Of a stretch of DNA of 64,000 nucleotides, positions 1 through 49,621 are shown piece by piece. The stretch is from Candidatus Omnitrophota bacterium (lineage in GTDB: Bacteria > Omnitrophota > Gorgyraeia > B26-G9): positions 2,089 to 66,088 of the forward strand of contig JAZDHZ010000027.1 in NCBI GenBank assembly GCA_043805415.1, written 5' to 3'. The position numbers were made by a program, and so were the translations under genes. The notes under the pieces were generated by a model. The model was not told the DNA's origin and ran no database searches. It saw only the letters and a list, made by a program, of their open reading frames with translations. The number at the start of each line of letters is the position of its first letter. The first letter of the stretch is position 1.

Positions 1-351
1 GGAGATCTGTGCATATCTTCAATAGAAAAACCTAGACCATGAAGAACTTTTTCTGCTTTCCAGGTATGATCTTGATCGCTAATCGGCAAGCTCGAACATA
101 CTTCTTTTAATACGCTATCTTGGGAAAAACTTATAGTCTGATTAAGATATCCAATGCGGTAATTTTTAGGGATAACAATTGTCCCGCTATCCGCGGCAAG
201 CGTTCCATTTATCAAGCTAAATAGTGTTGTCTTGCCATGACCATTACGTCCCACAAGTCCGATTTTTTCATTTGAACCAATGGAAAAACAGCCATTTTCA
301 AAAAGCTCCTGACCGCCAAATGATTTTGCTACATCTCTTAATTCAATCATA
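1..351 (-). CDS. ABC-F family ATP-binding cassette protein, N-terminal part (3' end lies beyond window start)
   Basis: Reverse-strand translation from ATG at 351..349 reads MIELRDVAKSFGGQELFENGCFSIGSNEKIGLVGRNGHGKTTLF... with Walker A GRNGHGKT. No ORF-track entry because it is truncated. Confidence 0.7.
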
Positions 352-366
352 AATCATAATTCTTTC

Positions 367-397
367 GTATTGCGTATTGCGTCGTGCGTATCGCGTA
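367..397. repeat. Tandem heptamer array (GTATTGC)x2-GTCGTGC-GTATCGC-GTA in the recQ/ABC-F intergenic spacer
   Basis: Read directly from the sequence: gtattgc gtattgc gtcgtgc gtatcgc gta. It lies 16-46 nt upstream of the ABC-F ATG. Confidence 0.6.
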
Positions 398-429
398 AAA
401 AATATAATCTAAACGCTATCTGCTATCTT

Positions 430-2271
430 TTAAAATACATCTTCTAATGATTGTTTCTGCAAAATCTGATTATTATTGATTACATCAATAAAAACCTTGG
501 CGTATGTTTTTAATTTCCGATCTCCCACGCCATAAATATCGGCAAAATCATCAAGATTCGAGGGTTTTTTAGCTGCCATATCTTTTAAGGTCTTATCGCC
601 AAAAACAATATATGCCGGCACTCCTTTTTTTCGGGCAATTTCTGCTCTGGTTTGACGTAATTTCTGAAATAAAGTTTCATCAACTCCCTGCCATTCCTGC
701 TGTCTCAGTGCCATACTCTGCTCGGCAACTTGTTTTTTCTTTTGCTGAACAAGCGGCTTAGCAAGCACTGGAGCAAGCTCTCCGTCAAGCAGCTGCTCGC
801 CTTTAGCAGTTACAGCTAAACTGGAAAATTCTCCCTCTCTTTCTAAAAACCCCTGGCCAATAAGCTGTTCAATCATATATCTGATAAAATTTATTGACTC
901 TTCAGCCATTATCCCAAATCTAGGCAATTCATGATGATGCATTTTTATTATTTTATCCGCCAGTTTACCCTGTAATACCTCGGCAATATATAATGCGCCA
1001 AAACCATATCCTTGCTGGCTCAGACTATCAATACAAGCAATAATGTTTTGGCCTATAAGCAGCGGGGCTTCAACCATATCCAGCTCATTTAAACAATAAT
1101 CACATGCGCTACAACCATCTTTACCGTATTTTTGGTCAAAATAATTAACCAGAACTTTATGGCGACACTGCGGCTGAGCACAAAAATCGTAGATTAATCC
1201 AAGCTTATGCATCATAGTTTTATGCTCTGCTGATTTTTTAGCAAAAAAGCTCCACAGCTGATAATCACTGCCGCTATAGAACATATAGCACGATGCCGGC
1301 AAACCATCTCGGCCGGCTCGGCCGGTTTGCTGCTGATAGTGCTCAATGCTTTGAGGCATACCCTCATGAATAACAAATCGGATATTTGATCTGTCTATGC
1401 CCATACCAAAAGCCACTGTTGCCACAATAATATTAACTGACTCGCTAACGAATTTATCCTGATTTTCTTGCCGCTGCTTATCTGTCATGCCCGCGTGATA
1501 CGCGACATTATCATATCCGAGTTTTTTCAATGTTTTTGCTAAATTATCCACATCTTTTCGTCTAAGACAATAAATAACTCCTGGTTCATCAATATGTTTA
1601 TCTAAAACTTCAGTAACTTGTTTTACAATCTGCTGACGCTGCATAACCCGATAAGTCAGATTAATTCGATCAACTGGCCCGGTATGGATCACCGGATTAT
1701 CCAGACCTAATTGCCTTAATATATCAATCTGGACTTCTTTAGTTGCGGTTGCCGTAAAAGCATGCACGCTTGCTGATTTAAAGATACCTTTAATAATGCC
1801 CAAAGCTCTATAGTCAGCTCTAAAATCATGGCCCCAATGGCTGATACAATGCGCTTCATCAATTACAAAAAAATCAACCCCAACTTTATTTAAAAGATCA
1901 AGAGTTGATTCATTCTGCAAACGCTCCGGAGATAGATACAAAAGTCTGATCCTGCCGCTGCTAATATCCTCAATAACCGTTCTTTGTTTAACTACGGATA
2001 AGCTTGAATTAAGATATGCGGCCGGTATGCCCATATCATTAAGTCCATCCACCTGATCTTTCATCAAAGAAATAAGCGGCGAGATAACAACAGCCATTCC
2101 TTTTTCCAGTAAAGCCGGTAATTGAAAACAAAGTGACTTTCCTCCGCCGGTTGGCAAAACAGTCAAGCTATCCTGTCCCTTGAGTATAGAAAAAATCGTG
2201 TCTTCCTGAAAGGGGAGAAATGAATCATACCCCCAATATTGTTCTAGTAAACGATATATTGTATCTTTCAT
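430..2271 (-). CDS. recQ: ATP-dependent DNA helicase RecQ
   Basis: 613 aa. PTGGGKSLCFQLPAL Walker A, DEAHCISHWGHDFR motif II, RQC zinc-binding Cys cluster, and a C-terminal HRDC-like region. Confidence 0.9.
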   Translation of the reverse strand: MKDTIYRLLEQYWGYDSFLPFQEDTIFSILKGQDSLTVLPTGGGKSLCFQLPALLEKGMAVVISPLISLMKDQVDGLNDMGIPAAYLNSSLSVVKQRTVIEDISSGRIRLLYLSPERLQNESTLDLLNKVGVDFFVIDEAHCISHWGHDFRADYRALGIIKGIFKSASVHAFTATATKEVQIDILRQLGLDNPVIHTGPVDRINLTYRVMQRQQIVKQVTEVLDKHIDEPGVIYCLRRKDVDNLAKTLKKLGYDNVAYHAGMTDKQRQENQDKFVSESVNIIVATVAFGMGIDRSNIRFVIHEGMPQSIEHYQQQTGRAGRDGLPASCYMFYSGSDYQLWSFFAKKSAEHKTMMHKLGLIYDFCAQPQCRHKVLVNYFDQKYGKDGCSACDYCLNELDMVEAPLLIGQNIIACIDSLSQQGYGFGALYIAEVLQGKLADKIIKMHHHELPRFGIMAEESINFIRYMIEQLIGQGFLEREGEFSSLAVTAKGEQLLDGELAPVLAKPLVQQKKKQVAEQSMALRQQEWQGVDETLFQKLRQTRAEIARKKGVPAYIVFGDKTLKDMAAKKPSNLDDFADIYGVGDRKLKTYAKVFIDVINNNQILQKQSLEDVF

Positions 2272-4620: not shown

Positions 4621-5460
4621 TTACTTTAGCTTAATTCTACACTTGTGTTCATAATGTTTAGCGCTTTCTTCTTCTTTGCTTTTAAACCTGCCTTGGCGCC
4701 ATATAATATCATCATAATCAACTAAATGCCCGTCAAAAGCCGGACCGTCAACACAAGTAAATTTTGTTTGCTGATTATATTTAATCCGGCAGCAGCCGCA
4801 CATCCCTGTTCCATCAATCATGATTGAGTTTAAAGACACAATGGTTTTTATGGATTTTAATTTTGTCACGCCTGCTACTGCCTTCATCATTATCAGGGGG
4901 CCGATTGCAAACACCAAATCATATGAACCCTTATCTAAAAGTTCTTTTAAAATATCAGTTACAAAACCTTTTCTGCCATAAGAACCATCATCAGTAGTTA
5001 TGTATAAATTATCGCAAAAAGGCTTTATTTCCTGATCACAAATAATCAGATCTTTTGTCCTAAACCCGATAATAGCGGTGACATCATTTCCAGCTTGTTT
5101 CATTGCTTTAGCAATAGGATAAACTTCTGCTGTGCCCACGCCGCCGCCGACAAAGATTACTTTACCGATATTTTGCACTTGCTCTGAGTGACCCAAAGGA
5201 CCGGATATATCCAAAACAGAATCGCCTTGATTTAAAGCGCAAAGTTTTCTCGTGCTTACCCCAATTGCTTGACAAACCACAGTTATCGTACCGTTTTGGC
5301 AATCAAAATCATATATGGTAAGCGGAAATCTTTCCCCAAATTCATCTACGCGCAGGATTACAAATTGCCCAGGACTTGCTGCCATCGCTAAATCCTTGGC
5401 CTCAAATTCAATAAGATGTACTTGGGAGTTTAACTGTCTTTTTTGTATTATTTTATACAT
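4621..5460 (-). CDS. nfnA: Ferredoxin-NADP+ reductase-like subunit (NfnA/SudB/PyrK-like; FAD plus a 2Fe-2S C-terminal Cys cluster)
   Basis: PyrK-like fold with C-terminal Cys cluster GMCGCCRIK...C. Preferred start is the ATG at 5460, preceded by AAAGGAATAAGC. The ORF track start at 5484 has no Shine-Dalgarno. Confidence 0.75.
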   Translation of the reverse strand: MYKIIQKRQLNSQVHLIEFEAKDLAMAASPGQFVILRVDEFGERFPLTIYDFDCQNGTITVVCQAIGVSTRKLCALNQGDSVLDISGPLGHSEQVQNIGKVIFVGGGVGTAEVYPIAKAMKQAGNDVTAIIGFRTKDLIICDQEIKPFCDNLYITTDDGSYGRKGFVTDILKELLDKGSYDLVFAIGPLIMMKAVAGVTKLKSIKTIVSLNSIMIDGTGMCGCCRIKYNQQTKFTCVDGPAFDGHLVDYDDIIWRQGRFKSKEEESAKHYEHKCRIKLK

Positions 5461-5583
5461 GCTTATTCCTTTTTTAAAACCCATGTAATACTTTTAAAGA
5501 ATAAAGCTGCTTATGAAATATTTTCAGCATCTTTTACCCCATTAAAGGAATTAATTTATTTTACCCTAATTAATATTTTTTAT

Positions 5584-6921
5584 TTACACAACACCCTGAT
5601 CTATCATCGCATCAGCAACTTTAACAAAACCAGCAATGTTTGCCCCTTTTACATAGTCTATATATTTACCTTCCTTACCATATTTTACACACTGTTTATG
5701 AATAGCCAGCATTATTCCGTGTAATTTCTCGTCTACTTCTTCTCTGGACCAAGCCAGTCTTTGACTATTCTGAGACATCTCAAGGCCTGAAGTTGCAACT
5801 CCACCGGCATTAGCTGCTTTGCCTGGCCCATAGCAAATTTTAGCCTTTTGAAATACTTTGACCCCTTCTGGTGTGGTCGGCATATTAGCCCCTTCACCTA
5901 CAGCAATACATCCGTTTGCAACCAATGCTTTTGCATCTGCTTCATTGAGTTCATTCTGAGTAGCAGACGGGAAAGCAATATCACATTTAACTCCCCAAGG
6001 ACGTTTTCCTTCAACATACTTACAATCATACTTTTTGGCATATTCTTGAATTCGGCCGCGCTTTACATTTTTGAGCTCCATAACATAAGCTAATTTATCA
6101 GCATCTATGCCTTTAGGATCATAAATGAATCCTCCGGAATCAGATAAAGTAACGCATTTTCCGCCAAGTTGGTTAACTTTCTCTACTGTATATTGAGCAA
6201 CATTTCCTGATCCGGAAACCGTACAGACTTTACCTTTTAAAGAGTCTCCTCTTTGATTTAACATTGCCTCTGTAAAATAAACACATCCATAACCAGTAGC
6301 TTCCGGTCTAATCAAACTTCCGCCCCAGTTAAGGCCTTTTCCTGTTAAAATTCCGGTAAATTCATTGCGCAGTCTTTTGTACTGTCCAAACATAAATCCG
6401 ATTTCACGGCCGCCGACACCAATATCTCCGGCCGGGACATCAGTATTAGGGCCGATATGTCTTTCCAGTTCCGTCATAAAACTTTGACAAAAGCGCATCA
6501 CCTCATTATCAGATTTTCCTTTAGGATCAAAGTCCGATCCTCCTTTACTTCCGCCCATTGGTAAAGTCGTCAAACTATTTTTTAAAACCTGTTCAAAAGC
6601 AAGAAATTTTAAAATGCCTAAACGCACTGTAGGATGCAATCTCAACCCCCCTTTATAAGGACCGATTGCACTGTTCATTTGTATACGAAAACCGCGATTT
6701 ACCTGAATTTCTCCTTTATCATCCATCCAAGACACCCGGAACATAATTACTCTTTCCGGTTCTACCATCCTTTCCAGGATTTTAGCCTTAGCATATTTAG
6801 GATTATTTTCTATAAAAGGCATTATACTCTCAACTACCTCGAGAACTGCCTGATGAAATTCACTCTCGCCTGGGTTTTTAGCAATAACTTTACTCATAAA
6901 TTCATTAACGTTCTTTTTCAT
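5584..6921 (-). CDS. gdhA: NADP-specific glutamate dehydrogenase
   Basis: 445 aa. Hexameric GDH signatures (GGLRLHPTV, KGG..., and a GSGNVAQY nucleotide-binding glycine motif). Confidence 0.9.
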   Translation of the reverse strand: MKKNVNEFMSKVIAKNPGESEFHQAVLEVVESIMPFIENNPKYAKAKILERMVEPERVIMFRVSWMDDKGEIQVNRGFRIQMNSAIGPYKGGLRLHPTVRLGILKFLAFEQVLKNSLTTLPMGGSKGGSDFDPKGKSDNEVMRFCQSFMTELERHIGPNTDVPAGDIGVGGREIGFMFGQYKRLRNEFTGILTGKGLNWGGSLIRPEATGYGCVYFTEAMLNQRGDSLKGKVCTVSGSGNVAQYTVEKVNQLGGKCVTLSDSGGFIYDPKGIDADKLAYVMELKNVKRGRIQEYAKKYDCKYVEGKRPWGVKCDIAFPSATQNELNEADAKALVANGCIAVGEGANMPTTPEGVKVFQKAKICYGPGKAANAGGVATSGLEMSQNSQRLAWSREEVDEKLHGIMLAIHKQCVKYGKEGKYIDYVKGANIAGFVKVADAMIDQGVV

Positions 6922-7195: not shown

Positions 7196-8119
7196 TTACA
7201 ATTCCTTTAAATAAGAGGCCAGATTGATCCCCTGTTGAGTAAGCCCAAGTTTTTTTCTAATAGTTTTACGATAAGCTTCAATAGTCTGAAAGGATAGAGA
7301 AAGAATCTGAGCGATCTGCTTAGAGGAAAGTCCGGATTTAATCATATTGGAAACTTCTATTTCGCGAGCCGAAAGGCGGAATTTTGAATGCGTAATAATT
7401 GGCCCAAACTCTGAAGCAATTTGGTTAACACTATCTTCCAAAGCTTTCACATATTCTTTAGGCACATTAATTGTTGCCAATCTCTCAATCAGCGGCAAAA
7501 GCAGTCTCTGGGCATTAACTGAAACTTTTTTAGCAAGATTGCGCTTTTCGATCTCAAATTGCGCGACTAATTCTTTTAAGGCAATATTTTTTTTATTTAA
7601 ATCATCATTTTTCTGTTTTAAAAGTTTTTGAGATTCCGTGAGCAAGCTAAGCGCATCCTTGCGTTCTATAAAACTACCTAGTCGATTAGCAATACCTTGA
7701 ATCAAATCTCTTTCTTCTTTTAAAAAAGGGCCCTCATCACTTTGCGGCATTTTTTTTATATAGTAAACCTCGACAGTGCCAACCTTTTGTTTTTCAGCAC
7801 AAATATCTGCTGTTTGTTTCCATTTGCTTTTTCTAAATTTTTTAGTGCAATAAGTCCTGTTCGCGTAACTTATAGAAGCATGAGTAACTGCCGGATATTG
7901 CCAGGATCGGGGAATAATATCTACGGTGCCTTGAAAAACCTTTTCAATAGATTGGTCATATTTTTCAATAAGCTGCATTATTCCATACATACAATGCAGC
8001 TCTTTAACCCGCTCTCCCAGGTCATGCCGAGTTTGATTATATTCAATTTTTATTTTTTCAAGCTCTTTAATCCGGTTTACAAGATTTCTATTGTTTGGTT
8101 TTAACGCGTCAAACCCCAT
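7196..8119 (-). CDS. LuxR-family transcriptional regulator with an uncharacterised N-terminal domain and coiled coil
   Basis: C-terminal LSAREIEVSNMIKSGLSSKQIAQILSLSFQTIEAYRKTIRKKLGL matches a LuxR/FixJ-type HTH. The N-terminal 230 aa has no known motif. Confidence 0.7.
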   Translation of the reverse strand: MGFDALKPNNRNLVNRIKELEKIKIEYNQTRHDLGERVKELHCMYGIMQLIEKYDQSIEKVFQGTVDIIPRSWQYPAVTHASISYANRTYCTKKFRKSKWKQTADICAEKQKVGTVEVYYIKKMPQSDEGPFLKEERDLIQGIANRLGSFIERKDALSLLTESQKLLKQKNDDLNKKNIALKELVAQFEIEKRNLAKKVSVNAQRLLLPLIERLATINVPKEYVKALEDSVNQIASEFGPIITHSKFRLSAREIEVSNMIKSGLSSKQIAQILSLSFQTIEAYRKTIRKKLGLTQQGINLASYLKEL

Positions 8120-46563: not shown

Positions 46564-46690
46564 TTCAATCTCCTTTAAATGAGCGCCTGACTTACGGAGT
46601 GTTCTTTACGACGTAAAGTCAGCCTGCGCGAATTTAGTCCGAAATGACTGCGTCCTAGCAGGCACTTTCGGAATCATTATTATTTATGCA

Positions 46691-47926
46691 TTACTTCATC
46701 TGTCTGATCGCCTTAATCCTTAATAATACCGGAGGATGTGAATAAGTTAAAAATACTTTTGCCGGATGCGGGGTTAAATTTGACAGATTATCTACTGTCA
46801 GCTTCTTCAGCGCGTCAATAAAAGCATCGGGCTGATTAAAAGTTTCTACGGCAAAACGATCAGCTTCATATTCATGTTTTCTTGACAATATACTCCCAAA
46901 AATAGAAAACAGCATATTAATCGGAGCATAAACAAATCCAAAAAATACCAAGCTCGCGTATATTGAAGTTTGCTCCATTTTAAATGCCGCGAATACACCA
47001 TGATTATTCAGGAAAAATGACAAGACAAAAAACATTAATCCGGTTGTGGCAATGGAAATAAATATACTTTTAAAAATATGCTTTTTCTTATAATGACCGA
47101 TTTCATGGGCTAAAACCGAAACCAGCTCATCAGTAGTATGTTTAGCAATAAGCGTATCAAATAAAGCAATCCGCCTAAACTTACCGAACCCGGTAAAAAA
47201 AGCATTGGATTTAGTTGAACGTCTTGAGCCGTCCATGGTAAACACTCCCCGCATTTTAAAATCCTGGGTTTTAGCATACTTTTCCAGTGTCTGTTTTAAT
47301 GGCCCGTCTGCTAAAGGAATAAATTTATTAAACAGCGGCATAATCACCACTGGCGCGATAAACATCAAAAACAGCTGAAACCCAGTTAAAGCAATCCAGC
47401 AATACAGCCAGGCTAAACCAGCGGTTTTCTCAAAAAACCAAAGAATCCCGGCAAAGGCTATTCCGCCAATAATCGCTCCGATAAGCACTCCTTTTATAAT
47501 GTCAGAAATGAAAGTTTTAATTGTTGTTTTATTAAACCCGTATTTTTGTTCAATTACAAAAGTCTGATAAACTGAAAACGGAATGTTTAAGATTTGACTG
47601 GCCAGCATTAAAATTCCGAGAAATATCAACCCGGAGATAATCGTTCCATAACCAAAACCGCGGGCAATTTTATCAACCAGATTAAACCCTCCATACAGGA
47701 TAAACCCGACAGTAAGTGCTGTCATAATCGTATCTTCAAGCAAACCAAAATTGGTTTTTTCTTTTAAATATAATTGTGATTTTTTATATTTATCCGCGTC
47801 ATAGTATCCATTAAATTCTTCCGGCAATTGGGGATTTACGGATTTAAGATTAAGGATTTCAACAACTAAATTTAGTCCATACTTAAATAAGATAATTCCT
47901 AGAATTAAAATCAAATATTTATTCAT
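46691..47926 (-). CDS. M48 family (Ste24/HtpX-like) membrane zinc metalloprotease
   Basis: HEIGHYKKKH HExxH motif. Multiple TM helices. ATG at 47926 with GGAGAG Shine-Dalgarno. The ORF track extension into xth was trimmed. Confidence 0.8.
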   Translation of the reverse strand: MNKYLILILGIILFKYGLNLVVEILNLKSVNPQLPEEFNGYYDADKYKKSQLYLKEKTNFGLLEDTIMTALTVGFILYGGFNLVDKIARGFGYGTIISGLIFLGILMLASQILNIPFSVYQTFVIEQKYGFNKTTIKTFISDIIKGVLIGAIIGGIAFAGILWFFEKTAGLAWLYCWIALTGFQLFLMFIAPVVIMPLFNKFIPLADGPLKQTLEKYAKTQDFKMRGVFTMDGSRRSTKSNAFFTGFGKFRRIALFDTLIAKHTTDELVSVLAHEIGHYKKKHIFKSIFISIATTGLMFFVLSFFLNNHGVFAAFKMEQTSIYASLVFFGFVYAPINMLFSIFGSILSRKHEYEADRFAVETFNQPDAFIDALKKLTVDNLSNLTPHPAKVFLTYSHPPVLLRIKAIRQMK

Positions 47927-47983
47927 ACACTCTCCAATTTTAGCTTCCCATATTTTACACACTATATCTAATGCTTTAGTTTT

Positions 47984-48014
47984 TACACAATACGCAATGC
48001 TCAATACGCGATAC
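47984..48014. repeat. Second copy of the heptamer array in inverse orientation (TAC ACAATAC GCAATGC TCAATAC GCGATAC) in the xth/M48 intergenic spacer
   Basis: Its reverse complement, GTATCGC GTATTGA GCATTGC GTATTGT GTA, matches the 367..397 array at about 28 of 36 positions including flanks. Confidence 0.6.
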
Positions 48015-48018
48015 TGCA

Positions 48019-48799
48019 CTAGATTTTCAAACTTATTCCCACAGGACAATGATCTGAACCAAACACATCTTTCAAGATAAACGCGTCAACCAAAGCTGCG
48101 CTTGCTGGATCATTGATAAAAAAGTAATCCAGCCGCCATCCTATATTTCTTTGCCGCGCTTGGGTTTTATAATCCCACCATGAATAGGCGACTGTATCTT
48201 TATGCCGGAATCTAAAAGTATCCACAAATCCTAACTCAATAAACTGATCTATTAATGCTCTTTCTTCCGGCAAAAACCCTGAATTTTTACTATTTTCTTT
48301 CGGGCGGGCAAGATCAATCTCATTATGCGCGGTATTTAAATCCCCGCAAATTATAATCTTTTTTTGTTTATTTTTAATTTTCTGAATATATTTAAAAAAC
48401 TCCTGATAAAAATCCAGTTTAAACTTTAATCTTTCGGCAGAACCGCCGCCATTGGGAAAGTAAATATTTATCAGCACAAAACTCTGATACTCAAGGATCA
48501 GCACCCGGCCTTCTTGATCAAATATTTTATTATTAAACCCATACTCTATATTATCGGGCTTAAATCGGGTATATATCGCAACTCCGCTATAACCTTTTTT
48601 TTGCGCCTGATTCCAATAAACCCTATATCCTGCTACTTCAAGCAAAGATTTGCTCAACTGCTCAGGATGTGCTTTTGTTTCCTGCAAACAAAGGAAATCC
48701 GGATTTTCAGTTTTAAACCAATCCAAAAACCCCTTTTTTTCTATTGCGCGTATTCCATTGACATTCCAGGATAAGAATGTCAATTTATTATTTTTCATC
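48019..48799 (-). CDS. xth: Exodeoxyribonuclease III
   Basis: LTFLSWNVNGIRA, PDFLCLQETK, and C-terminal SDHCPV motifs. ATG at 48799. Confidence 0.85.
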
Positions 48800-49621
48800 T
48801 GCTTGATTTTCTTCACTGTTAACCGCATTACCCGCCGGAATATAATCACGCATCATCATTTTATAGCCGATCCCAGCAGTTCCATCTATCCGCAAAGGAA
48901 TTCTGTTTTTATCAGCGCCTATCCAAATCTTGATTTTACTAGGTTCACTTTCAAAATAATAAGCCTCAAATTTTCCCGCCGGAATTTCCACCTCTTCTAT
49001 TCTGATAAGTTTTATTACATACTTACCTTGAGGCAGATTAGCAGTAAAGGTCCAGCCTATTTCTAAGCCTGCGGCATCACGCACAAAAAAAGGCAATAAA
49101 ATAGCATTCTGGATCGGCTCTGTGCTTCGAATCTCTGTGGTAGTTGTCCCGAATCTTTGATTTGTAATCGTCAGTTTAAAATTACTTTGATCATACACTT
49201 CCCTGATTTTCTCAGGCGTTAAGGGCTTTGATATCTTGCGTTCAACAATAAGCGGCAAAAATGTACTTGAATCGCAATAAATAGTTTCTCGATCATTAAA
49301 ACTCATTGCCTGGGTATGAAAAGTTATAATATCTGCCGGTTTGTTATCCAAATAAGTTTTCCGCAAATGATGATACTCCGATGTTCCCATACGCACTCCG
49401 CCAAGAAACAGATCATAATTTATCTGCTCACCAACCCGATCAATTATTTGTTCTTTAGCGCTGTCTTTGACACTTTCAGTAAGCTTATTGTCATATTCAA
49501 CAATATCCTCCGCTTGCCAAACATAAAAAAACGCGATAACCAAAAACAATAAAAACAATAATCTTCCCCTTCTCCCCCAACGTTTATTCGGAGCAGAAAG
49601 ATATGGAAAAAGATGACGCAC
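48788..49621 (-). CDS. Hypothetical membrane-anchored/secreted protein (possibly DUF3108-like)
   Basis: N-terminal Arg-rich segment followed by a hydrophobic anchor. No catalytic motif. Confidence 0.4.
   Translation of the reverse strand: MRHLFPYLSAPNKRWGRRGRLLFLLFLVIAFFYVWQAEDIVEYDNKLTESVKDSAKEQIIDRVGEQINYDLFLGGVRMGTSEYHHLRKTYLDNKPADIITFHTQAMSFNDRETIYCDSSTFLPLIVERKISKPLTPEKIREVYDQSNFKLTITNQRFGTTTTEIRSTEPIQNAILLPFFVRDAAGLEIGWTFTANLPQGKYVIKLIRIEEVEIPAGKFEAYYFESEPSKIKIWIGADKNRIPLRIDGTAGIGYKMMMRDYIPAGNAVNSEENQADEK

Follow-up and report, generated by a model that had tools for sequence, protein, structure and literature searches.

Short GTATTGC heptanucleotide arrays in intergenic spacers of a Candidatus Omnitrophota genome: a probable slippage-generated, dispersed repeat family with polar placement

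Two heptamer arrays and their spacers

In a stretch of 64,000 nt from Candidatus Omnitrophota, here called the window, two short tandem arrays of the heptamer GTATTGC lie in spacers between genes of the minus strand. Array 1 (367-397) reads GTATTGC GTATTGC GTCGTGC GTATCGC GTA on the plus strand and has GCAATAC-type units on the sense (minus) strand. Array 2 (47984-48014) has the opposite orientation and reads GTATCGC GTATTGA GCATTGC GTATTGT GTA on the sense (minus) strand. Both are 31 nt long, can be written as an imperfect (GTATTGC)x4.4 and have 24 of the 31 bases in common when they are compared in register. The units are built around a conserved core, TGCGT, followed by two variable bases (unit variants GTATTGC, GTATCGC and GTCGTGC), and the longest perfect run in either array comprises two units (366-382).

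The spacer of array 1 (351-429, minus strand, 79 nt) separates two co-directional minus-strand genes. Upstream of the array lies the gene of a RecQ helicase (430-2271, minus strand) and downstream the gene of an ABC-F type ATPase (1-350, minus strand), which is cut by the window edge and represented by its N-terminal part. Between the array and the ABC-F ATG (350-348) there are 16 nt, and on the other side of the array the RecQ stop codon (430-432) is 32 nt away. The spacer of array 2 (47927-48018, minus strand, 92 nt) likewise lies between co-directional minus-strand genes, here an exonuclease III (ExoIII) family gene (48019-48849, minus strand) upstream and the gene of an M48 (Ste24-like) metalloprotease (46691-47926, minus strand) downstream. 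Here, 4 nt separate the start of array 2 from the ExoIII stop codon TAG (48019-48021), and a further 57 nt lie between its other end and the M48 ATG (47926-47924). The start of the M48 gene at 47926 is that of P0121, a protein of 411 amino acids from an Omnitrophota metagenome-assembled genome (MAG), which is 100% identical to the M48 protease of the window.

Tandem Repeats Finder (TRF) reported a period of 7 for both arrays, with 4.6 copies, 80% matches and a score of 43 for array 1, and 4.4 copies, 75% matches and a score of 34 for array 2. A search of the window for (GTATTGC)x3 with at most three mismatches gave five overlapping matches that are confined to the two arrays, whereas shuffled sequences lead us to expect 0.01. 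A looser pattern, GCGTNNNGCGTNNNGCGT, also matches arrays 1 and 2 only. The lone heptamer GTATTGC is not enriched in the window (10 observed vs 8.1 expected). An initial sequence-only reading had described two mutually inverted GTATTGC arrays in spacers preceding minus-strand genes, and TRF and the shuffle test agree with this description. We conclude that the arrays are real and do not result from chance. The same reading had called them GC-rich and CpG-rich islands amid AT-rich spacers, which is borne out by the composition counts: GC content is 0.52 in array 1 and 0.42 in array 2, with six and three CpG, compared to a GC content of 0.19-0.30 and zero to one CpG in the remaining spacer DNA and to 0.38 and 3.4 CpG/100 nt in the whole window. 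The terminal TATCGCGTA had been taken for a palindrome, which is wrong, as its reverse complement is another string, TACGCGATA, and the CGCG core alone is self-complementary.

Repeats of 7 nt make up nearly the whole RecQ-ABC-F spacer. In addition to array 1, it contains a second heptamer array directly past the RecQ stop codon (408-428, plus strand: CTAAACG CTATCTG CTATCTT; sense AGATAGC AGATAGC GTTTAG), which is separated from array 1 by 10 nt, and an exact tandem duplication of the 7-nt sequence TATGATT at the ABC-F start codon (345-359, minus strand). This duplication creates an out-of-frame upstream ATG, with a four-codon mini open reading frame (ATG ATT TAT GAT TGA) that overlaps the true start, and it shifts the purine-rich GAAAGAA 7 nt away from the ABC-F start. 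Three of the seven exact two-copy duplications of period 7 in the window are found in this spacer.

Turnover among relatives

The closest relatives of the window are Omnitrophota MAGs, and we compared the two spacers with their orthologs in these genomes. In five relatives (L271, L272, L273, L275 and L276), the ExoIII-M48 spacer is 11-15 nt long and holds no array, although the M48 protein is ~90% identical to that of the window in four of them and 80% identical in L276. Compared to these five, ~75 nt of the spacer in the window constitute an insert. The closest relative, L001, has an insert of ~61 nt at the same place, and no other genome compared has it. In a multiple alignment, array 2 and its ortholog in L001 differ by a clean gap of 14 nt, which corresponds to two units and makes the L001 array the shorter one, as well as by several substitutions. 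The rest of the insert (~60 nt) is 95-97% identical between the window and L001, whereas the flanking genes are ~83% identical in DNA. Within its spacer, array 2 is thus the part that evolves fastest, and its length changes by multiples of 7 nt. The comparison of filled and empty junctions offers a case of an array that differs by exactly two units next to non-coding DNA that is nearly invariant.

The non-array part of the insert (47927-47983, minus strand, 95-97% identical to L001) has no second copy in any sequence compared and is likely the promoter or the 5' leader of the M48 gene. The insert as a whole has no terminal inverted repeats, and we saw no clear target duplication. A recombination tract around it was considered and rejected, as the raised identity between the window and L001 is limited to the insert. 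Furthermore, a long open reading frame (ORF) that starts with TTG and codes through array 2 (46691-48049) is incompatible with the 14-nt indel and with the conservation of the M48 N-terminus and was rejected. In L002 and L003, which are more distant Omnitrophota, GTAACCA / TAACCAG arrays are found upstream of M48.

Array 1 is subject to a similar turnover. The orthologous spacers of L266 (from the same MAG as L001; RecQ 91% identical) and L270 (RecQ 88% identical) are both without a GTATTGC array. Instead, L266 has CGCAAAC-type units with a period of ~8, and L270 has CTAAACG CTATACG, with ACGC every 7 nt, which may be a two-unit remnant of the unit family of array 1. The TATGATT duplication is present in neither of the two. 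In L268 and L269, RecQ is followed by GGATAGC GTTTAG arrays, which are akin to the array at 408-428.

These comparisons across relatives do not fit a conserved operator. The sequence-only reading had proposed a regulator-binding site; however, neither array is kept before the same gene at ~90% protein identity, and array 2 is the least conserved part of its spacer.

Dispersal of the unit family

The GTATTGC unit is not restricted to the two spacers of the window. In the 15 kb of L001, we found three further arrays (5098-5118, 5449-5476 and 5759-5787) and a two-unit remnant, compared to two copies in the 64-kb window. All three arrays lie inside the 715-nt spacer between M48 and PFK, at sites that are not orthologous to arrays 1 and 2. 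The first (GTATTGC GTATCGC GTATTGA) stands immediately past the M48 stop codon and overlaps that codon. The other two have the opposite orientation and read GTATTGC GTCGTGA GTC(G/A)TGC GTATCG(A/C), so that the unit order GTATTGC-GTCGTGM-GTATCGC is common to array 1 and two arrays of L001. The last one (5759-5787) lies ~25 nt upstream of the PFK ATG and is oriented to PFK as array 1 is to ABC-F. The metagenome contig L120, whose genes are ~67% identical to those of the window, contains the same 26-mer as the first L001 array. There, a GTATYGC array is followed by a CTAWNCG array (CTAACCG CTATACG CTAATCG), which parallels the succession of array 1 and the array at 408-428. The recurring unit order and the identical 26-mer likely reflect copying between spacers or a shared constraint. 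Another 64 kb of close relatives (L266 with 21.8 kb, L267, L268 and L270) contain no GTATTGC array, and the family is thus small or patchy.

With a 20-nt probe, at least 120 metagenome contigs were matched, and the GC content of these contigs ranges from 0.27 to 0.69. All array statistics for metagenomes given here are based on 164 arrays from 120 of these at least 120 loci. The arrays most often have four units (59 of the 164), followed by three (42) and five (28). Thirty of them form inverted pairs that are capable of folding into a hairpin, and many adjoin arrays of other heptamers. On low-GC contigs, the arrays occur in recurring composite units beside GTAG-headed hairpins that resemble repetitive extragenic palindromic (REP) elements, e.g. 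GTAGGGGCACAATGAATTGTGCCC. The sequence-only reading had suggested a small dispersed repeat family or a simple-sequence element, to be doubted if the genome held the two copies only and related genomes held none. We found the unit family at non-orthologous spacers of L001, on L120 and on at least 120 metagenome contigs, and the single orthologous copy differs by exactly two units, in agreement with both suggestions.

An example of an inverted pair is found in L077, a contig from an unrelated uncultured bacterium. Directly past a stop codon (14644-14699), GTATTGC-type units and their inverted copy form a hairpin of 19 pairs (-29.6 kcal/mol, z = -5.0). This hairpin is flanked by two copies of AGTGCTTAC (period 9) and by the heptamers GTTTCAC GCATCAC GCTTCAC.

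Heptamer repeats as a general class

To put the abundance of the unit into perspective, we compared it with control heptamers. In viral contigs, a 20-nt probe of GTATYGC gave 8 matches, three scrambles of the same composition gave 8, 29 and 9 matches and GTCGTGC gave 11. As scrambled heptamers are as frequent as the original, the abundance of GTATTGC alone is uninformative. A census of tandem repeats in 1.18 Mb of genome loci that were fetched via the M48 protein, and are unbiased for repeats, revealed that period 7 is the commonest class: it accounts for 28 of the 62 arrays with at least three copies, and these 28 arrays have 27 different units. Four Omnitrophota loci contain 11 of the 28. 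Likewise, the non-coding DNA of Omnitrophota relatives has an autocorrelation peak at lag 7, whereas other phyla have none, and in this clade, exact duplications of two copies are more frequent than expected with period 7 (24 vs 14.3 +/- 2.6) but not with period 8 (6 vs 5.5). The general phenomenon is the known excess of heptanucleotide repeats and is not peculiar to GTATTGC.

Polar placement and RNA folding

We observed that the arrays are placed in a polar manner relative to genes. Among the 93 metagenome arrays with ORFs on both sides, read in the GTATTGC orientation, the nearer ORF lies on the 5' side of the array in 65 cases and on the 3' side in 28 (p = 1.6e-4). When one array per locus is counted, the numbers are 50 vs 20. 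Between co-directional genes, arrays with the unit on the non-coding strand (n = 39) are nearer to the downstream start in 31 cases vs 8, with a median distance of 30 nt to the start and 126 nt to the upstream stop. Arrays with the unit on the coding strand are nearer to the upstream stop in 16 cases vs 7, with medians of 11 and 70 nt. Arrays 1 and 2 both obey this rule: the former, on the non-coding strand, lies 16 nt from a start, and the latter, on the coding strand, lies 4 nt from a stop.

The two transcribed orientations also differ in RNA folding. The sequence (GUAUUGC)5 has a folding energy of -13.0 kcal/mol compared to a mean of -4.6 for shuffled sequences, self-pairs by means of G-U pairs and has one UUG per unit. 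For (GCAAUAC)5, the energy is -1.8 kcal/mol, and it contains no AUG, GUG or UUG. Across the 164 metagenome arrays, the mean is -0.098 kcal/mol per nt in the (GCAAUAC)n form and -0.228 in the (GUAUUGC)n form. This asymmetry offers a testable reason for the polarity.

Two further ideas were tried and rejected. Orientation of all heptamer arrays by composition (keto, purine, G>C and T>A skews) gave no significant polarity. Polar growth of the arrays, in which young and perfect units would occupy the 5' end and units towards the 3' end would have decayed, is represented by a weak trend that is not significant (0.23 vs 0.12 at offset 2).

Searches for signals in the spacers

Neither array spacer contains a promoter resembling the sigma-70 consensus or a sequence conforming to the consensus of an intrinsic terminator, and the A/T run is on the wrong side of the arrays for such a terminator. 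A promoter read by hand in the spacer of array 2 (TTGTGT-N18-TATAGT) was rejected, as it falls below the criteria for a promoter consensus and is not kept in L001. As the 16 nt between array 1 and the ATG leave no room for a promoter, array 1 is almost certainly transcribed. Compared to shuffled sequences, the folds of the spacers are not significant (z = +0.9 for the array 1 leader and -1.5 for the array 2 spacer), and the array spacers have no match in Rfam at gathering thresholds. We also rejected the idea that the arrays are the ends of an invertible or mobile segment of 47.6 kb, as the segment does not differ from its surroundings in gene orientation or GC skew and the relatives are syntenic.

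Origin and maintenance of the arrays

Taken together, we favour the reading that the arrays are short and imperfect heptanucleotide simple sequence repeats (SSRs) generated by slippage, that they belong to a TGCGT-NN family scattered in the spacers of the Omnitrophota lineage and that they are not sequence-specific regulatory sites. We assign this reading a probability of about 0.6. In this scenario, slipped-strand mispairing during replication would create the arrays and alter them in steps of 7 nt, short-patch copying might in addition spread them from one spacer to another, and arrays would persist where expression is not harmed, which would depend on the strand that is transcribed. Unstructured (GCAAUAC)n RNA might be tolerated, or might even be mildly useful, as a single-stranded leader directly before the ribosome-binding site, as would be the case for array 1. 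RNA of the form (GUAUUGC)n, which pairs with itself and contains UUG start codons, might be tolerated directly past a stop codon and far from the next start, as would be the case for array 2. Selection at the RNA level could then be the reason for the polarity, which would also fit the quadruplex-forming strand of the heptameric repeats known from Xanthomonas. The arrays would presumably have no dedicated binding protein.

Several observations weigh against this reading. Pure de novo slippage leaves unexplained why the same unit and the same unit order occur at unrelated spacers, and also why one 26-mer is identical in L001 and L120, the genes of which have diverged much further. That slippage has acted is inferred from a comparison in which the closest relatives are ~83-85% identical in DNA, and the copy count is based on 64 kb of the source genome. 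The non-coding DNA of the window as a whole has no lag-7 signal. With respect to polarity, the gene calls in the metagenomes are crude (ORFs of at least 90 codons), and the gap in folding energy between the two orientations is small for the actual arrays (-4.2 vs -8.9 kcal/mol for array 1 and -1.7 vs -4.4 kcal/mol for array 2). Moreover, the polarity is specific to this family: other heptamer arrays, when oriented by composition, have none (109 vs 90), and thus the argument from RNA structure is not yet general. The lack of significance in the test of polar array growth is a further weakness of this argument.

The main rival of slippage-generated SSRs is that the arrays are left over from, or form part of, a small intergenic element that moves or is copied between spacers, similar to miniature inverted-repeat transposable elements (MITEs), bacterial interspersed mosaic elements (BIMEs) or REPs. 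Such an element would account for an array 2 insert that is present in two of six genomes of a star-like clade and is more similar between them than the flanking genes, and for the identical 26-mer in L001 and L120. The 715-nt M48-PFK spacer of L001, which is bracketed by inverted GTATTGC-family arrays and holds other repeated non-coding blocks, points in the same direction, as do the composite units with GTAG-headed hairpins on low-GC metagenome contigs and the gene of a Y1 (IS200-like) transposase in the relative L267. We nevertheless consider this unlikely. Neither terminal inverted repeats nor a clear target duplication delimit the insert, and its non-array part is single-copy in the sequences compared, which does not correspond to a MITE. 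The window contains no GTAG-type REP, GTAGGGGC-type heads are less frequent in it than expected (12 vs 20.5), the spacers form no stable hairpin as in REPs or BIMEs and no transposase gene is close to array 1 or array 2. The heptameric family of Xanthomonas is likewise unlinked to mobile elements (Rehm et al., PMC4692102). That the arrays are functional mRNA elements is quite unlikely in our view. Here, array 1 would be a single-stranded standby or translation-enhancing part of the ABC-F leader, a role that MacGregor proposed for TAACTGA repeats (PMC4679880), and array 2 a 3' trailer by which the ExoIII transcript is protected or kept separate from M48. The near-certain transcription of array 1 and its position before the ATG are consistent with this, as are the lack of structure in (GCAAUAC)n, a leader that is less structured than shuffled sequences (z = +0.9) and the proximity of most non-coding-strand arrays to the downstream start. 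However, the same position in relatives is occupied by unrelated units or by no array, a junction of 11-15 nt between ExoIII and M48 suffices in five of them and we detected no covariation, conserved structure or Rfam match. Rehm et al. also found no regulatory role for the analogous repeats of Xanthomonas (PMC4692102).

The remaining two explanations assign the arrays a role as a regulatory switch or site. Repressors that read heptads, such as omega, tolerate either orientation of the heptad. An operator of contiguous heptads that is read cooperatively, on the model of the ribbon-helix-helix protein omega of pSM19035 or of NarL-type regulators, would place ABC-F and M48 in one regulon and would explain why the same heptad occurs in two spacers and in either orientation. 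The arrays are GC-rich islands in AT-rich spacers, the window contains a gene of a GerE/LuxR-type regulator (7196-8119), and heptanucleotide arrays of Geobacter have been annotated as putative sites of global regulators (PMC2700814). Conservation argues against an operator, as the arrays are not kept before the same genes at ~90% protein identity and no part of the array 2 spacer varies more than the array itself. In addition, the two arrays have opposite orientations, their distances to the start codon are unlike (16 and 57 nt), they are not overlapped by a sigma-70-like promoter and arrays of scrambled heptamers are just as common; we thus regard an operator as improbable. A phase-variable contingency switch, in which gain and loss of units would alter the expression of the downstream gene as for hmw1A/hmw2A, had also been considered in the sequence-only reading. 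The number of units does differ between relatives by a multiple of 7 nt, and array 1 would separate any promoter from the start codon, as the hmw repeats do (PMC12721329, PMC8262952). Known switches, however, are long perfect tracts, whereas each array here has about four units with 75-80% unit identity and a longest perfect run of two units, and the neighbours (ABC-F, RecQ, ExoIII and the M48 protease) are housekeeping genes rather than genes for surface structures or host interaction. Rehm et al. were equally negative about such switching for their families (PMC4692102). A fast switch is therefore highly improbable.

A broader claim would be that the polar rule is general for heptamer families and caused by the asymmetry at the RNA level, and that TGCGT-NN heptads, which occur on contigs of 27-69% GC, are cross-phylum modules of leaders and trailers. 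We consider this doubtful. If the rule were general, the unstructured orientation that is free of start codons would build up in 5' leaders and the self-pairing G/U-rich orientation in 3' trailers. TGCGT-NN modules would then perhaps be copied between spacers, and the ExoIII-M48 junction, which is empty in five genomes and filled in two, would provide a natural before-and-after case.

Comparison with known heptanucleotide repeats

The literature search turned up no paper that contains the array sequence. The closest resemblance is to the heptameric SSR families GGGAATC of Xanthomonas and GGGGAYT of Nostoc, of which ~90% of the arrays are intergenic (Rehm et al. 2015, PMC4692102). Some of these form inverted pairs, their sites and lengths vary among close relatives, they are linked neither to surface genes nor to mobile elements and no function was found (PMC4692102). 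The GTATTGC arrays resemble them in their period of 7, in heterogeneous units around a conserved core, in a typical number of four units and in their dispersed intergenic location. Occasional inverted pairs, differences in site and length among close relatives and the lack of a tie to transposons or to genes for surface structures are further common traits. In both cases, the 5' end of a defined strand adjoins an ORF in any orientation, that is, past the stop codon when on the coding strand and before the start codon when on the non-coding strand. Unlike the families of Rehm et al., the GTATTGC unit is not G-rich and cannot form a G-quadruplex, and its host is an uncultured member of the Omnitrophota. 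The polar rule thus extends from G-rich families to a unit without quadruplexes, which argues against a quadruplex as the cause and for a more general one. The copy number also differs, with two copies in 64 kb compared to ~185 copies per genome in Xanthomonas (PMC4692102).

Repeats of TAACTGA that closely precede start codons have been described from marine Beggiatoaceae and from some Cyanobacteria and Bacteroidetes (MacGregor 2015, PMC4679880). Like the arrays described here, these are intergenic direct repeats of a heptamer in 2-6 copies, they mostly lie a few nt before starts, as array 1 does, and one unit is common to phyla that are only distantly related, for which no mechanism of transfer is evident. 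They differ in the unit itself, in being mostly perfect, in their number (169 sets in one genome) and in that placement past stop codons is not emphasised. As cited in later work (PMC4679880, PMC4692102), Mrazek et al. 2007 found heptanucleotides to be the most abundant class of long SSRs in many genomes and suggested polymerase slippage. Our census agrees with this, whereas theirs, as presented there, is a statistical class with no defined unit. The excess of 7-nt repeats was noted in 2007 and has remained without an explanation since.

The short tandemly repeated repetitive (STRR) sequences of cyanobacteria likewise comprise more than one heptanucleotide unit that has been multiplied head to tail in non-coding DNA, though the phylum and the units are different from ours and STRR arrays can be far longer. 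Mazel et al. 1990 (cited in PMC4692102) reportedly described these for Calothrix and heterocystous cyanobacteria, the genomes of which hold many copies. In the Omnitrophota relative L007, we observed an array of TTGGTCA x2.6 (9854-9871), and this unit is presumably one of the Calothrix STRR units.

Among systems with an assigned role, the 7-bp tract of hmw1A/hmw2A in H. influenzae is also a heptamer tandem between promoter and start codon with a number of units that varies by slippage (PMC8262952, PMC12721329). Those tracts are long, perfect and variable within populations and they grade the expression of an adhesin, unlike the four imperfect units next to housekeeping genes described here. 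Geobacter genomes have annotated heptanucleotide arrays of 4-5 units (Aklujkar et al. 2009, PMC2700814). With respect to operators, we identified no gene for a cognate heptad-binding protein, and no search for ribbon-helix-helix genes was made. The omega heptads of pSM19035 (WATCACW) are contiguous and direct or inverted, and a protein can thus read a period of 7 bp. However, WATCACW does not occur in the arrays, and the arrays, unlike omega operators, are not conserved at promoters.

The arrays on their own are ordinary; what is new is that the Omnitrophota and the GTATTGC unit, with its core TGCGT-NN, join the known heptanucleotide families of bacteria. For genome annotation, this means that GC-rich and CpG-rich islands in AT-rich spacers should not be called operators without evidence of conservation.

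Other features of the window and its relatives

Almost all genes of the window are on the minus strand, all 2-kb bins have a negative GC skew (-0.07 to -0.25) and the 64 kb contain no tRNA genes. The M48-PFK spacer of the window (46564-46690, minus strand) is filled by a conserved non-coding element of ~110 nt that lies directly before the PFK ribosome-binding site. In L001 (14811-14918) and L275 (209-320 and 13256-13363), epimerase genes are preceded by copies with 85-92% identity. The copy in L001 comes after a TATAAT box and is thus probably transcribed as a leader. Four sequences give a consensus fold of two hairpins with 34 pairs, four of which have compensatory changes, and the element may be an undescribed cis-regulatory leader. 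At relaxed thresholds, Rfam gave one match in the M48-PFK spacer, a miRNA at chance level.

The length of the M48-PFK spacer varies widely, from 127 nt in the window to 715 in L001 (5099-5813), 12 in L271 (11243-11254), 345 in L273 (7552-7896), 36 in L275 (5314-5349) and 40 in L276 (11252-11291). Across these six genomes, the spacers are largely unrelated in sequence, whereas the flanking genes are 74-86% identical in DNA. Intergenic spacers of this clade thus turn over very fast. L001 contains repeated non-coding blocks of ~250 nt (5196-5450 and 14246-14485, 84% identical) and inverted blocks of ~130 nt (5556-5705 and 14575-14699, 94% identical). These blocks sit in long spacers that are short in the window, and fragments of them occur elsewhere (L267 11839-11902 and L275 315-391). 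A search of L001 5090-5830 in Rfam at relaxed thresholds gave no match.

The Y1 transposase gene of L267 (4989-5840; IS200-like, PF01797) encodes 283 amino acids and lies between a radical-SAM gene and a desulfoferrodoxin gene; the equivalent site of the window has the genes of a trehalose-6-phosphate phosphatase and GDT1. Lastly, the window contains a nested tandem repeat at 14114-14176 with periods of 9, 21 and 30 (consensus TTTTGCTGC, score up to 101). It lies inside an ORF (14099-14584) whose protein probably has a low-complexity repeat.

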